The position numbers and the translations under genes are program-made. Below the pieces are notes generated by a model. That model was not told where the DNA came from. It did no database searches and saw nothing but the letters and a program-made list of their open reading frames with translations. A DNA stretch of 64,000 nucleotides. Origin: Promethearchaeota archaeon (GTDB lineage Archaea; Asgardarchaeota; Lokiarchaeia; Sigyniarchaeales; SOKP01). Below are positions 4,010 through 21,294 of this stretch, piece after piece (positions within the stretch are counted from its first letter, which is position 1; each line of letters opens with the position of its first letter). The DNA lies in contig JBHLNF010000002.1 of assembly GCA_048937405.1 (NCBI GenBank), forward strand, positions 128,001-192,000, in the 5' to 3' direction.

Positions 4010-4330
4010 TTATAGGCATTTCCAAGAATCTACAAGTAATTGATATTCAAAATATTCATCATATATTTTAGATCTTGGATTTTTTCTTTTTCCCTCCACT
4101 TTAATCAATTTCCCTACTATTTCAATTTTTTCGGTACAGGACAGGGAATCCTTGCTGTATATTACAATTTGGTATCCATCGTCTAGATTAAAGTAGTTAA
4201 TAAATGGATGAGATTCTATTAATTTTGTAAGGTGTTGCCATATTTCCTTAGCAATTTTGCCAATAATCTTAACTCGTTTTCCCACACTCTCTTTAAAATC
4301 CGAATATTTTGTTAAAATAATCATTATCAT
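4010..4330 (-). CDS. Hypothetical protein, possible OB fold (start probably near 4330, not the TTG at 4369)
   Basis: VGKRVKIIGKI...IEIVGKL beta pattern; region upstream of 4330 is low-complexity A/T. Confidence 0.55.
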   Translation of the reverse strand: MIMIILTKYSDFKESVGKRVKIIGKIAKEIWQHLTKLIESHPFINYFNLDDGYQIVIYSKDSLSCTEKIEIVGKLIKVEGKRKNPRSKIYDEYFEYQLLVDSWKCL

Positions 4331-4641
4331 TTTTTTAAATAAATTTTTTTTATAATTTCTACTGTGCAAGACCAGTATAAAAACTTTCTTCTATAAGAAA
4401 ATGAGTATTTTATTATTTTAATTATTTTCTAAGTATTGTAGGATGCAAGTATGGTCTATTATATTTGTTGCACCATGATAGAATGATAATAGTTTAAAAT
4501 ATGCATATTTTATTTTGTCATAGAATAAGAGAAGGAATCCCTAAAGTATGTTTTATTAAGGTTTTTATTTTTAAATTTCTCAGATCATAAAATATGAGAA
4601 GAAGGTCTCTACTCCTCAAATTTAAAAATCATTCCTACTTG

Positions 4642-15943: not shown

Positions 15944-16138
15944 TTATTTTACCATTAGCAATTGTTTTAAATTATCTATATATTTTCCATATCCTTCCTT
16001 CCTCAGAAATGCTTCAATAGATCCATAGTTCCTTTCAATTTCTTGTACTACTACTCTTCTTAACGTTCCTTCATAACCAATCTGGCAAATTAAGTAGGTA
16101 TCTAAATCTGCATAACCAATATCTATATCATTAAACAT
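15944..16138 (-). CDS. Provirus hypothetical protein (probable start MFNDID at 16138)
   Basis: ATG overlaps the end of the KTSC gene; the longer ORF call overlaps KTSC by 128 bp. Confidence 0.5.
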   Translation of the reverse strand: MFNDIDIGYADLDTYLICQIGYEGTLRRVVVQEIERNYGSIEAFLRKEGYGKYIDNLKQLLMVK

Positions 16139-16499
16139 AGTTCCATCTATATCCTCCTTTCCTAATATTGTAGTAGAAAAACGTACCTTTAGAATGAGCA
16201 TAATAAAACTCTTCAAAAATACTAAACGGTACATCATAGTATTTTGCCATTTTTCCACTAAGAAACTGTACTTTTAATTCTCCTGCTTCTATCGTCTTTC
16301 CTTTTATATATTCAAATCCTGCTATATTAGTAGAGCTTACTGGCATCATAGGATAATCCTTCCATACAAGTCTCCCTACTCTCATAGGACCTATTGCAGG
16401 AGGTTGCTCTTTTCTTGTAGTTGGTGTTAGTAATCTGCTAGGTACAAACCTGCCACTTTCATCTCTCATGTAGGGCTTTGGTCTTCTTCTTCTTACCAT
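16131..16499 (-). CDS. KTSC-domain protein with Arg-rich N-terminus
   Basis: PVSSTNIAGFEY...LKVQF.SG...YYDVP...F..AHSKGTFF..NIR is the KTSC pattern. Confidence 0.85.
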   Translation of the reverse strand: MVRRRRPKPYMRDESGRFVPSRLLTPTTRKEQPPAIGPMRVGRLVWKDYPMMPVSSTNIAGFEYIKGKTIEAGELKVQFLSGKMAKYYDVPFSIFEEFYYAHSKGTFFYYNIRKGGYRWNYV

Positions 16500-16502
16500 A
16501 TT

Positions 16503-17837
16503 TTATCCTCCATAATTCCAATTACTATACATTTCCCAAAGATACTTCCTAAAGTAGTAATACACTCCATGCATAAGAGAGTCTACATAATCATCATCTT
16601 TCTTATCTCCGCAGTAATGTAATAACTGTTGTTTTAAAGTAGGATTTTTCACTATAAGCCTATTCTCATCCAGTACATATCTTAATCCTTCTATATACCA
16701 TTCTTTCTGGTTTCCAAAGAACGAGAATTTAGTACTGTAATTACTTTTCTTCATTTTTGAATTTACAACACTTGCTATCGTCTGCGATCCTTCTAAGATA
16801 AACAGTGGATGATATTTCTGCTGAAACTCCCTACATTTAACTAATATCTCTTCATAGGTAGCATTTTGTTTTCCCCACGATTCAAGCTCGTAAATAATAT
16901 TATTCTTAATTGCAAGAACAAACATCGTGCATTCATGTCCCCATCCCCAATCAATAGGACATACAATCTCTCCGTAATTTCCTATCTCATTATAATCAAC
17001 AAATGCTTCTTCGATTTTCTTTGCTTTAAAGTATGCTCCTTCTTCTTCTACCCATTCCATCAGCACTTCCTGTCTCCACATCCTCTCTGTCATTCCTGCT
17101 TTTATCTGCTTCCATGTATCTTCTGAAACCCATATAGCATCCTCTTTTCTTAGAGTAAATTTACTGCATTGTAAATCTTTATCAAACCAAAATGTATGGA
17201 ATCTACTACCTGCTTTTGCAGTTCCTGTAATCCATATATGCATTTCTCTTCCTGTTGCCAACATAGGAAAGATTTTACTCCATACTTCTGGCTCTACTTC
17301 CTGTGCTTCGTCTATAATAACTATATCCGCTTCGTACGTTCCTGTATCTGCTATTGTATTACTATGAGCCATCACAGTAGTGCCATTTTTCAATGTAGTA
17401 TGTGTTTTAGCATCTTGTTTACCCAACAAATCAAGTTTATACTCTAAATCAATTTCTCGTATTGAACTAATTACATAAGAAGCAGTTTCTTTCTTAGAAG
17501 ATAAAATGTGGACTCTGAGTTTCCTTCTTGTTCCTAATAAAATAATTCCTAAAGCGTCAAGGTAGGTTTTACCTGTTTTTCTACATCCAAAAACCATTGT
17601 CATTCCTGGTTGTAGAAAACTTTGTAAAATTTCCTTCTGTTTTGGAACTAACTTTTTAGTTATCTTTTTATAATTAACTGCAAATTTCTTATCTTCAGTA
17701 GTGAGGTAGGGTTCTACATATAGTCTCGCATACAAAGGAAAAATATTAATATAGCTTCTTGCCTTTGCAGGATCTTTACTCGCTTCTGAAATCATTTTTT
17801 CTAAAATTTTCTTATAGTTAAATTCTTCTTCGTTCAA
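16503..17837 (-). CDS. terL: Terminase large subunit
   Basis: Walker A GCRKTGKT, Walker B IVIIDEAQ, coupling motif TGT, nuclease PIDWG and DDYVDS. Confidence 0.92.
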   Translation of the reverse strand: MNEEEFNYKKILEKMISEASKDPAKARSYINIFPLYARLYVEPYLTTEDKKFAVNYKKITKKLVPKQKEILQSFLQPGMTMVFGCRKTGKTYLDALGIILLGTRRKLRVHILSSKKETASYVISSIREIDLEYKLDLLGKQDAKTHTTLKNGTTVMAHSNTIADTGTYEADIVIIDEAQEVEPEVWSKIFPMLATGREMHIWITGTAKAGSRFHTFWFDKDLQCSKFTLRKEDAIWVSEDTWKQIKAGMTERMWRQEVLMEWVEEEGAYFKAKKIEEAFVDYNEIGNYGEIVCPIDWGWGHECTMFVLAIKNNIIYELESWGKQNATYEEILVKCREFQQKYHPLFILEGSQTIASVVNSKMKKSNYSTKFSFFGNQKEWYIEGLRYVLDENRLIVKNPTLKQQLLHYCGDKKDDDYVDSLMHGVYYYFRKYLWEMYSNWNYGG

Positions 17838-18030
17838 TGGGTAGGGGTGTCTCTTCGTTTTTTATACAGAGTTCACTTCCTTTATTCTCATATTATAATT
17901 AAGGGAGGGATAAGCTATCCCTACCCTTTATGCATGAAGGAAGTGAAGAATATATGCGGAAGCAACAGAGCAGTTATCCTGACCTTTGAGGTTTGATCTG
18001 ATTGTTACTTCCTTTCTATATCCTATAGGA
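17838..18030 (-). ncRNA. Candidate structured RNA leader (or DNA packaging-site structure) upstream of terL
   Basis: Nested inverted repeats 17872-17882/17937-17947, 17901-17912/17916-17928, 17958-17967/18003-18012; extra complementarity 17839-17846/17919-17926. Confidence 0.55.
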
Positions 18031-18059
18031 GTTTTAACATTTGTAATACGATTTATTAT

Positions 18060-18089
18060 TTTGATAATTATCAAACTAATACATTTAAA
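18060..18089 (-). promoter_or_regulatory. Putative late promoter (TTTAAA at 18084-18089) with a perfect 16-bp palindrome over the expected start site
   Basis: TTTGATAATTATCAAA at 18060-18075 is a perfect palindrome. Confidence 0.5.
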
Positions 18090-18114
18090 TTTCAAAAATT
18101 AGACAATTTTGTAG

Positions 18115-18363
18115 TCATAGCAGAAAAAACAGCGATTTTCAGTTACCTTTTTTTAGTAGAAAAAAAATAAGTATATATATATATATTATATTTTATAAGT
18201 TTTTATTTATATTTTATAATATAATAGTATATTTTATATATTTTATATACCTAGATCGTAAGAAAAAATATATATATAAAAATAGAAATAAATATATAAA
18301 TATATATACATTTTTCTCCATATAAAAAAGGTTGGAAAAATTTCCATGTTTTTTCTGCTATGA
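18115..18363. repeat. 17-bp perfect inverted repeat flanking a very A/T-rich core; candidate replication origin
   Basis: TCATAGCAGAAAAAACA (18115-18131) / TGTTTTTTCTGCTATGA (18347-18363); imperfect inward extension ACCTTTTTT...AGAAAAA...GTATATATA on both arms. Confidence 0.75.
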
Positions 18364-18591
18364 GAATTTATTCGTTCTTCTATCACGCACAACTTTTATA
18401 ATTTTAACAAAAATGTATTATTTTGAAAATTAGAAAACCATCTAATATAATACTTACTCGTCCACATCCTTAGCCAAAATCTAATTTTAATAGTTATCTA
18501 ATCTTTAAACCAATACAATTTTCAAATATTTATAAGTAAGTGGAATTATAGTAGGATGAGAAAAAACTATTTTAAAAAATAATATAAAAAA

Positions 18592-19146
18592 GTGAAAATT
18601 AAAATGACTAAACTATTATTTGAACTCAACGATGTAATTCATAGAAAATTTAAGACCTTCTGCATTAATAAAGGAACAACCATGAAAAAGGAATTAAACA
18701 AATATATCGAGATTCTCCTTAAGGAAAATGACTCTGATCTAAATACAGAAGATCTTACAAAAGCTATTACTGAAAAAGAACGTAAAGAAAAATGGGAATT
18801 AGCTTTAAAACAATATAAAAAGAAAAAAGAATCAAAGAAGGAAAAAAAGAAATATAAACAAAAACAAAGACGTATACAATATGAAGAAGCAGAAAAACTT
18901 TATCATCAGAATAAAATCGTTAAATTACAAGAAAAGAGAGAAGATCTTATTAGAGAATTAGTTAGAAAGAATCCTTTTCTCGATCCCTGGGGGTATGAAT
19001 TTGATAAAGAAATTATACCAGAAATCGAAGAATTTAATAGTAGATATACTCTGAGAGGTCTAATAGCTTTACCTGATCAGACTTTAATAAACATTTGGTA
19101 TAAATTCCAACAAGAAGAAGTAAATAAATTAGAAGGTGATTTTTAA
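18592..19146 (+). CDS. Ribbon-helix-helix (ParG-like) domain protein with basic coiled coil
   Basis: KLLFELNDVIHRKFKTFC...TTMKKELNKYIE RHH pattern. Confidence 0.6.
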   Translation: MKIKMTKLLFELNDVIHRKFKTFCINKGTTMKKELNKYIEILLKENDSDLNTEDLTKAITEKERKEKWELALKQYKKKKESKKEKKKYKQKQRRIQYEEAEKLYHQNKIVKLQEKREDLIRELVRKNPFLDPWGYEFDKEIIPEIEEFNSRYTLRGLIALPDQTLINIWYKFQQEEVNKLEGDF

Positions 19147-19976: not shown

Positions 19977-21152
19977 TTAGTCAGAAGGTTTTATAACTTT
20001 ACCTTCTTTCTTTTGTTTTTCAATATATTTTTCAAACTTATCTTTATCGATCATAGGAAAAAAAGTATTAACCATCTCTTTCATTAAACTAAACTCTTTC
20101 TTCATGTTACTTATATCTCCTCTTAATTCGAAGTTTTCTTGTTTTAATTTCTTGACTTCTTCTGAAGTTCTATCGTACACTTCACAGTCAATGCAAATAT
20201 TTGGTTCTATTTTTAACCACTGCTTATAAAACCACTCAATATCGAGCAGGTTTTGATTATAACTTCTGCTTAAATTTGTAGCTTTATGACCTAGTAAATG
20301 CTCTCTAAATTCTGCATCAATTTCCCTTGATCTTCTTACCTGACTTGAGAAATATTTCCTAAACGTGTGAGTTTTAATATTTCCTTCTATACCCATTTCT
20401 TTACAAATTGCTTTTAATCTTCTAAGATAATTATTCTTATTAATCTTATTTCCCATTTTAGTTTCAAAGATAAATCCTCCTACAGATTCTATTAAATTTG
20501 ATAGTTCAGTAGGAAAAAACACATAATTAATTTTAACTCCTTCTTTCATTGTTTTAAAGTTTCTAATAAATGAATGATTTTTATACTTTTCAATCTTATA
20601 TTTAGGAGTACATTCAAGAATATCACTAATTCTAAATCCAGTTAATGCTTGGAATTTTAAGATTAATCTATATTCTGGTCTGTGTAAATTGACAAGAATC
20701 TTTTGAATAGTATTTCTATCCAAGATAATTTCATTAACATTTGAACCTGCAGAAACAGTTTGTAATCCATCACTTAAAGGAGATCCTCTATCAGAGTAAA
20801 AAGATTTAATTCTTGATTGAATCATATTCTTCACAGAACCTTCATTAACTCCATCTCGTAATAAACTGCTTAAATATGTGAGTAACCTTTTATTTCTTTC
20901 GTCAATTTCTTCCTCTAAGAATTCAGTAGGATTTTCACACTCGTAAAATCTACAGTAATCATTCAGAGGTTTTAAATAACCTGTGGTGTTAAATCTTGAA
21001 GGTATTTTTCCACTTCGTGCATATTTCTCTACTTTATGGACTATCCAGAGTTTTACATCATTATTCCTAAAGATTGGATATTTTTTCTCCCATTTCTCAA
21101 TTTTCTTCTGTCCAAATACTTCAGTTAAATTTAAATTTTTTAATTCTATCAT
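19977..21152 (-). CDS. Tyrosine recombinase/integrase
   Basis: TGFRISD (R), KTMK (K), HTFRK (H..R), LLGH, SYN (Y) catalytic set; TTTATAAA about 23 nt upstream suggests a leaderless transcript. Confidence 0.93.
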   Translation of the reverse strand: MIELKNLNLTEVFGQKKIEKWEKKYPIFRNNDVKLWIVHKVEKYARSGKIPSRFNTTGYLKPLNDYCRFYECENPTEFLEEEIDERNKRLLTYLSSLLRDGVNEGSVKNMIQSRIKSFYSDRGSPLSDGLQTVSAGSNVNEIILDRNTIQKILVNLHRPEYRLILKFQALTGFRISDILECTPKYKIEKYKNHSFIRNFKTMKEGVKINYVFFPTELSNLIESVGGFIFETKMGNKINKNNYLRRLKAICKEMGIEGNIKTHTFRKYFSSQVRRSREIDAEFREHLLGHKATNLSRSYNQNLLDIEWFYKQWLKIEPNICIDCEVYDRTSEEVKKLKQENFELRGDISNMKKEFSLMKEMVNTFFPMIDKDKFEKYIEKQKKEGKVIKPSD

Positions 21153-21294
21153 AGGTTACAGAAGGAAGATTTTATTTATAAACTTTATGCTGTGTACGGT
21201 AGATTTTTTATATAAAATCTTTATCATTTTTTTTATTTTTTGTCTCTCTTTACTTTTAATAAACTTTTTAGCCCATATTGAATTTAGTAAAAGA

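Follow-up and report, generated by a model that had tools for sequence, protein, structure and literature searches.

Terminase loci of Asgard viruses have a non-coding element that is real and conserved and had not been described before; it lies directly upstream of terL, the terminase gene, in a provirus integrated in the genome of an Asgard archaeon. The element contains two stem-loops, hairpin 1 (hp1) and hairpin 2 (hp2), whose structure, judged from the comparison of related viruses, is under selection. The reading put first here, tentatively and as something short of a probability, is that the element would be a cis-acting structured RNA leader of the late operon. An earlier note on this DNA had claimed a structured leader in front of terL with a pseudoknot and several alternative states; the structured leader is confirmed as a structured, conserved non-coding element at that place, and the fate of the other parts of the claim is described below.

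The window, that is, the whole stretch of 64,000 nucleotides that was analysed, belongs to a 565-kb contig of a host assembly of 4.47 Mb (about 30% GC, 29 contigs, 100% complete by markers), and no SSU rRNA match was found in the 29 contigs of this assembly. A host protein has a cluster mate at 90% identity labelled Odinarchaeota and another match labelled Promethearchaeota. The carrier of the element is a verdandivirus-like provirus of about 17 kb, of which the following genes are referred to here:

16131–16499, minus strand: gene of a KTSC-domain protein, directly after terL (Pfam KTSC, 2.9e-12; Arg-rich N-terminus)
16503–17837, minus strand: terL, 444 aa, TTG start, short type without the N-terminal extension
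19977–21152: tyrosine integrase, beyond the divergent regulator cluster

On the 3′ side of terL, the KTSC-domain gene is followed by portal, capsid and tail genes, and on its 5′ side a spacer of 750 nt leads to a divergent cluster of small regulator-like genes. The best homologues of the terL product are metagenomic proteins with 51–61% identity; it shares 43–50% identity (E 1e-105 to 1e-110) with the TerL of VerdaV1 (a Lokiarchaeia virus), VerdaV2 (a Thorarchaeia virus) and VerdaV4, and its match to Pfam Terminase_6N scores slightly under the cut-off. This homology to described verdandiviruses would place the provirus in the Verdandiviridae, TerL being the protein compared. A 13-bp direct repeat, TTATCATTTTTTT, at 4324–4336 and 21221–21233 brackets the block from the integrase to the tail genes (about 16.9 kb), and its two copies are weak candidates for att sites. 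Since the locus combines an integrase, flanking 13-bp direct repeats and a verdandivirus-like TerL, it is taken as a provirus of verdandivirus type in an Asgard archaeon. A search of 399 genomes from the phylum found this TerL nowhere beyond the window itself; a scan of genome contigs for TerL gave one truncated contig labelled Bathyarchaeota, and blastn against phage records gave no match.

TerL-guided scans yielded 29 related loci, which are of two kinds. The TerL of long-type loci has 510–550 aa and an N-terminal extension with sub-threshold Pfam matches to HTH or zinc-ribbon domains, so that this extension is a plausible built-in DNA-recognition module and may be a TerS-like module fused to TerL; the 5′ parts of long-type genes were seen in L007–L011, L013, L014, L020, L024 and L025, and the short form has about 445 aa. 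The upstream DNA of the short type was compared between the window and three relatives, L016, L004 (=L033) and L019 (=L034), and the covariation tests accordingly rest on four loci. In L016, L004 and L019, 600–900 nt of non-coding DNA lie 5′ of terL and face the divergent module. As the earlier note had implied, a small-terminase gene (terS) is missing at the terL locus, and none was found in the whole provirus. A terS or other small ORF hidden in the spacer was rejected, as the 55-aa and 49-aa ORFs there are of low complexity and not conserved, and a tblastn search of the provirus for a separate copy of the long-type N-terminal domain gave nothing significant.

The KTSC gene directly follows terL in every one of the 11 loci examined except L014; it occupies 4496–4867 in L004, 3117–3485 in L016 and 2876–3235 in L019, and is also present in L007–L009, L011 and L020. 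The Arg-rich segment of its product is N-terminal in the four short-type loci that bear hp1 and weaker in L006, whereas the products of L007, L008 and L009 have it as a tail at the C-terminus. Further downstream, about 2.4 kb from the terL start, long-type loci have a conserved small hairpin of their own, AGAGGGG-aay-CCYCC, directly 5′ of AGATATGA (L007 2727, L008 3261, L011 5438, L020 4895, L024 3088, plus duplicates), which may be the gene-start signal of a structural gene.

From the 5′ to the 3′ side of the terL sense, the parts of the region upstream of the gene are arranged as follows:

18060–18075, no strand assigned: 16-bp perfect palindrome TTTGATAATTATCAAA, on the upstream side of hp1 and flanked by it and by an A/T-rich box
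17958–18012, minus strand: hp1 core, with a 10-bp outer stem, conserved internal loops and a small apical hairpin
17937–17947, minus strand: 5′ arm UUCACUUCCUU of an 11-bp stem that encloses hp2
17901–17928, minus strand: hp2, a hairpin in which a purine run pairs with a pyrimidine run (5 bp, then a bulged U, then 7 bp), with GCU as its loop
17872–17882, minus strand: 3′ arm AAGGAAGUGAA of the enclosing stem, which resembles an SD but lies at least 35 nt from the start codon
17858–17866, minus strand: TATA-like box TATAAAAAA, a putative promoter whose first nucleotide is at −29 from the TTG
17838–17850, minus strand: C-box ACACCCCUACCCA, abutting the start codon

All pairings that the earlier note had listed are found on the minus strand where it had placed them. 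When 17830–18040 (211 nt, minus strand) was folded with RNAfold, the MFE was −58 kcal/mol, compared with −38.3 ± 4.0 kcal/mol in shuffles (z −4.94), and 0 of 200 shuffles folded as well as the native sequence. The MFE fold is made up of two independent domains: an extended hp1 at 18024–17947 (−25.2 kcal/mol), and the 11-bp stem together with hp2 at 17947–17872 (−29.9 kcal/mol). In Rfam scans, a permissive one of 17000–19000 and another at gathering thresholds, no family reached the threshold, the best E values being 0.26–0.56, well under the gathering scores; the covariance model of the phi29 pRNA gave no match in the permissive scan.

The outer stem of hp1 is formed by GGAAGUAACA (18012–18003) and UGUUGCUUCC (17967–17958), and its single mismatch is, as had been noticed, a wobble on the minus strand (U18007–G17963). 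Inside it are the pairs CAG/CUG, AUC/GAU and ACCU/AGGU and the conserved internal loops, which in the window read ACAAUCAG ... CAGGAUAACUGCUCUGU; in the MFE fold eight more pairs (AGGAUAUA/UAUAUUCU) are added, and the span grows to 17947–18024. This structure is conserved: hp1 was found upstream of terL in three of three accessible relatives with a short TerL (L016, L004 and L019), so that it recurs with covarying stems in all four short-type loci. The covariance model R1 was built from three copies, and the fourth, that of L016, was then found with it at 19.4 bits (E 0.015). Elsewhere in 179 kb of related loci R1 has no match beyond the four short-type loci, and hp1 is single-copy in the 4.47-Mb host genome; a second, weak R1 match (contig 18, E 0.25) falls within an ORF of 751 aa and was put down to chance. 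Pattern scans of IMG/VR, with the hp1 core and with the stretch of TATA-like box and C-box as patterns, returned the known loci only, plus chance matches in unrelated GC-rich contigs. The motif is confined to the subgroup with a TerL that has no N-terminal extension.

In the structural alignment of the four hp1 sequences, 86% of the cells are paired, compared with 28–46% when the partners are slid, and 8 of the 20 pairs are compensatory with both sides changed, a number reached by 0 of 500 shuffles; these values are to be read with the sample of four sequences and with an alignment that was itself fitted to the model. The outer stem differs virus by virus (GGAAGUAACA, GGUAGAGGACUACA, GGUAGGGGACUACA and GAGUUUAU), while the internal loops ACAAYCAG and CAGGAUAAMUG are constant across the viruses. 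Sequence conservation is thus found in the loops and variation in the stems, and the pattern is that of a folded single strand and the opposite of what a double-stranded DNA operator would show. The alignment cells contain G-U and A-C combinations in a ratio of 5:2, and the sense strand folds better than the antisense strand in three of the four copies; this wobble ratio and these energies point weakly to an RNA of the terL sense. In stability hp1 is unexceptional (z −1.4 to −3.2). In L019 (LAZR01001629), an extra SD-led ORF of 75 aa lies at 1106–1333 between hp1 and terL, and no counterpart of it was found in the window, L004 or L016; because this ORF comes between the two, hp1 marks the 5′ end of the operon and not the start of terL.

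The arms of hp2 are AAGGGUAGGGAUA (17928–17916) and UAUCCCUCCCUU (17912–17901), with one bulged U. Among 32-nt hairpins in the 19 kb scanned around the provirus, hp2 ranks first in stability (z −7.06), and it is single-copy in the 4.47-Mb host genome. In L016, the closest relative, its architecture is kept (5 bp, bulged U, 6–7 bp), as are 11 of the 12 pairs, and between the window and L016 (n = 2) 4 of the 12 pairs are retained through compensatory double changes. Pairs maintained by compensatory changes, as in a conserved structured RNA motif, are present in both hairpins, the sequences being few (four for hp1 and two for hp2).

Comparable G-run/C-run hairpins occur inside the terL ORF, at the equivalent place, in five long-type lineages (L008, L009, L010, L011 and L013), where they sit in the coding linker that joins the N-terminal extension to the ATPase core and are followed, as hp2 is, by a CCCTTAAY motif. 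The hairpin is the most stable or the second most stable in each of seven loci. The five hairpins within the ORF are more stable in their native form than 98.2–99.9% of synonymous recodings (p 0.001–0.018), which means that selection acts on the nucleic acid and not only on the protein, and their sole mismatches are G-T on the sense strand. A frameshift-stimulating role of these hairpins was considered and dropped, as no slippery heptamer lies at the proper distance. The covariance model R2, built from hp2 of the window and of L016, matched only L011 among the long-type hairpins (E 1.2), and what links hp2 to the long-type hairpins is consequently their position and composition, their rank in stability and the test with synonymous recodings, and not a homology score. 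In coding and non-coding DNA alike, hp2 keeps its position relative to the ATPase core of TerL. Its distribution is patchy: a hairpin of this type is missing in about half of the lineages, namely in the short-type loci L004 and L019 and in L006, L007, L014, L020, L024 and L025.

Next to the start of terL the signals are of another kind. Between the TAA at 17864–17862 and the conserved N-terminus, no canonical in-frame start other than the TTG at 17837 exists, and in the alignment this codon falls on the Met of close homologues; all aligned homologues start with ATG. As the earlier note had pointed out, terL has no SD before it, and internal genes of the operon have SDs of the GGTGA/AGGT type; but the absence is nothing special in this host, in which only about 7% of crude gene calls have an SD-like word in front of them. 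According to a review (PMC12993045), Lokiarchaea rarely use SDs. In all four short-type loci, a C-rich box of the CCCCNACCCC type is located 0–16 nt before the terL start, and an A/T-rich box is located 45–60 nt upstream of hp1. These A/T-rich boxes could be the upstream late promoter, and no run of at least five T, the archaeal termination signal, was found between hp1 and terL, so that a transcript passing through hp1 would reach terL. The 16-bp palindrome is a candidate operator, and in L016 there is a stretch related to it, TGATAATTA...TGATCAAAT. Further upstream of hp1, the relatives share more conserved non-coding blocks, ATGGGTTAAWTAGATT and GTCAAAT..TTAACCGACATA (L004 2200–2850, L019 600–1000, L016 1000–1550), which are only faintly recognisable in the window.

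Four other explanations were weighed against the RNA leader. One of them, a close rival that is nevertheless considered rather unlikely, takes the element as a DNA packaging signal (pac/cos), in which the first cut of the terminase on concatemers would be made at hp2, with the C-box and hp1 perhaps forming part of the site, and this site would replace a pac embedded in terS. The place immediately upstream of the terminase gene, in a virus with no terS, is the canonical one for such a signal; hp1 and hp2 are both unique sites adjoining the terminase gene, and hp2 is in addition the strongest local inverted repeat of the scanned 19 kb, folds equally well on either strand, and keeps a constant position with respect to the ATPase core whether the DNA is coding or not, as is expected of a DNA signal. 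Moreover, the long-type hairpin in the linker after the HTH- or Zn-ribbon-like extension recalls the pac inside terS genes, and verdandivirus genomes assemble as circles, which their authors read as terminal redundancy (10.1101/2021.07.29.453957); the contig ends near terL in the relatives are uninformative on packaging termini. On the other hand, known pac/cos sites are read as duplex DNA, for which compensatory stem changes or a conserved bulge are needless, the covarying stems and conserved loops of hp1 fit a folded single strand, and the hairpin is missing in about half of the lineages, though every virus needs a packaging site. The constant position of hp2 also bears on the least credible of the four, namely that the upstream region is an evolutionary fossil, a decayed N-terminal extension of a long-type terL whose hairpins would have no present function. 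For it speak the position of hp2, which agrees with that in long-type genes in reading frame and roughly in the distance from the Walker A motif, and the in-frame read-through RVGIAYPSLN, which resembles GRVAITPLN of L008. With TerL at 61% identity, however, neutral DNA would not have retained 11 of 12 hp2 pairs, 4 of them by double changes, nor would decayed DNA remain the strongest hairpin in 19 kb; and the short-type start is common to more than 10 diverged proteins, from which it follows that the truncation is old.

A DNA promoter or operator is an improbable explanation, and it would have terL transcribed without a leader from the TATA-like box at 17866–17858, with the C-box in the initiation region and the inverted repeats bound by divergent RHH-type regulators that switch the late operon. 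In archaeal leaderless promoters, the centre of the TATA box is expected about 26–27 nt upstream of a TSS that coincides with or adjoins the start codon. TATA(C)AAAAAACG and the C-box form the best-conserved linear stretch between the window and L016, the box and the ACG that follows it being kept in L016 at the same 19–20 nt from the C-box; the region separates the divergent regulator module from the structural module; first genes such as the integrase have a TATA at about −30 and no SD; and the TATA hexamer at −29 coincides with the peak of TATA-like hexamers at −32 to −28 from ATG in the host genome. This peak, however, is only about 1.4-fold over background, the distance from box to start is different in L016 (−46), and L004 has no TATA at that distance. 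A leaderless terL mRNA from this box, which is possible, would leave out both hairpins, and the TTG would then be an unusual start. In haloarchaea, leaderless mRNAs are poorly translated when their start codon is not AUG. Conservation in an operator would lie in the arms, but hp1 has variable arms around a conserved interior.

The remaining explanation, very improbable on the present comparison, is the multi-state switch or pseudoknot of the earlier note, in which the G-box GGGUAGGG (17926–17919) would have two alternative partners, the local one and the C-box, and by its choice would occlude or expose the terL UUG. As sequence, the claimed complementarity is there: the G-box perfectly matches CCCUACCC (17846–17839) over 8 bp ending 1 nt before the TTG, the duplex has −17.7 kcal/mol, a value that none of 500 shuffled versions of the upstream 200 nt attains, and the C-box is kept next to the start in four loci. 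The repeat AAAGGAAGU does occur twice, at 18015–18007 and at 17883–17875, the second copy being within the 3′ arm of the enclosing stem. The functional part of the claim is not supported. In the relatives, the G-box:C-box duplex lies within the shuffle distributions (−6.5 kcal/mol in L016, −8.8 in L004, −12.1 in L019), so that the loop-to-downstream pairing of an H-type pseudoknot is not kept in any of the three. Nor do the energies favour several states: compared with the MFE of −58.0 kcal/mol, the fold with GGGUAGGG:CCCUACCC forced in its nested form has −48.7 kcal/mol and that with AAGGAAGU:ACUUCCUU forced has −40.0 kcal/mol, costs of 9.3 and 18 kcal/mol, respectively. The 11-bp enclosing stem, which the earlier note had listed, has no counterpart in L016, L004 or L019 when the sequences are inspected by eye and is specific to this provirus. 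Neither conserved mutually exclusive pairings, nor an aptamer-like conserved pocket, nor an Rfam aptamer of a described class was found. The structure is not a conformational switch, its pseudoknot features being lineage-specific and energetically unfavoured, and the riboswitch, IRES and packaging-RNA readings are speculation. The C-box is, as far as the four loci tell, a separately conserved sequence box, and its likeness to the 3′ arm of hp2 probably explains the complementarity in this one provirus.

The cis-acting RNA leader is favoured for three reasons, namely the pattern of conserved loops and covarying stems in hp1, the counterparts of hp2 inside mRNAs, and the wobbles of the sense strand. 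According to this model, two independently folding stem-loop domains before the terminase gene would be kept folded by selection. The late transcript, which serves packaging and morphogenesis, would start at a promoter upstream of hp1, so that hp1 and hp2 would become cis-acting RNA elements in its 5′ leader, and the hairpins may act there as protein-binding, stability or processing signals that set the expression of the late genes and of terL. What was observed directly is how hp1 and hp2 fold, that they are conserved and that each is unique in the genome; their transcription and their role are inferred. The conserved TATA-like box at −29, the slight strand preference of the folds, the unexceptional stability of hp1, its sample of four and the absence of hp2-type hairpins from about half of the lineages count against the RNA leader. 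A bolder extension, to which little credence is given, supposes that in the short-TerL subgroup the RNA leader (hp1, perhaps also hp2) takes over the job of the missing DNA-recognition module and, with the Arg-rich KTSC protein bound to it, would recruit or license the terminase; in a milder variant of this extension, hp2 and the C-box would guide SD-independent start selection in the Asgard host.

Hairpins that act in cis in phage operons include the lambda nut/boxB, bound by the Arg-rich N protein, and the put RNAs of HK022. The element resembles these operon leaders in having one or two stem-loops near the 5′ end of an operon, in stems kept by compensatory change and in an Arg-rich protein encoded nearby, here the KTSC protein. 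It differs from them in its archaeal host, in the absence of sequence or Rfam similarity, and in that its transcription is deduced; moreover, we know of no antitermination of the lambda or HK022 kind in archaea. The likeness is a lead and not a test. With the pac/cos sites of tailed phages (P22, SPP1 and lambda), which lie in or beside terS, the element shares a unique site directly upstream of the terminase, and the long-type hairpin shares with them a place after a DNA-binding-like N-terminal part, here the linker behind the TerL extension; those sites are duplex recognition sequences, whereas here there are covarying hairpins and no terS. In phi29, too, a structured RNA is linked to packaging in a virus without TerS, but the present locus gives no sign of protein-primed replication and no match to the pRNA model, and its TerL is full-length. 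The conserved C-terminal half of this TerL corresponds to the part in which terminases have their nuclease, and may carry one. As for the Verdandiviridae, the order terL–KTSC–portal is the same as in the described viruses, and L019 (LAZR01001629) is listed in the paper on them; in contrast, the present virus is integrated and has an integrase, and its TerL lacks the N-terminal extension, while the published viruses are predicted to be lytic (10.1101/2021.07.29.453957). The founding paper on these tailed viruses of Asgard archaea describes proteins and no non-coding elements (Medvedeva et al., 10.1101/2021.07.29.453957).

Almost nothing is known of gene regulation and genome packaging in the viruses of Asgard archaea, and hp1 and hp2 are the first candidate cis-acting elements for this virus family. 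The former is a subgroup-specific motif with covarying stems, and the latter holds its place beside the ATPase core of the terminase in coding and in non-coding form. The earlier reading is corrected in two respects: relatives do not share the pseudoknot or switch, and for this host it is ordinary that terL has no SD. Both hairpins can serve as handles for mapping late promoters or packaging sites, as well as for studying the choice of start codons in the SD-poor Lokiarchaea. If it were true that an RNA stands in for the recognition module, this would amount to RNA-assisted initiation of packaging in viruses of the archaeal relatives of eukaryotes.
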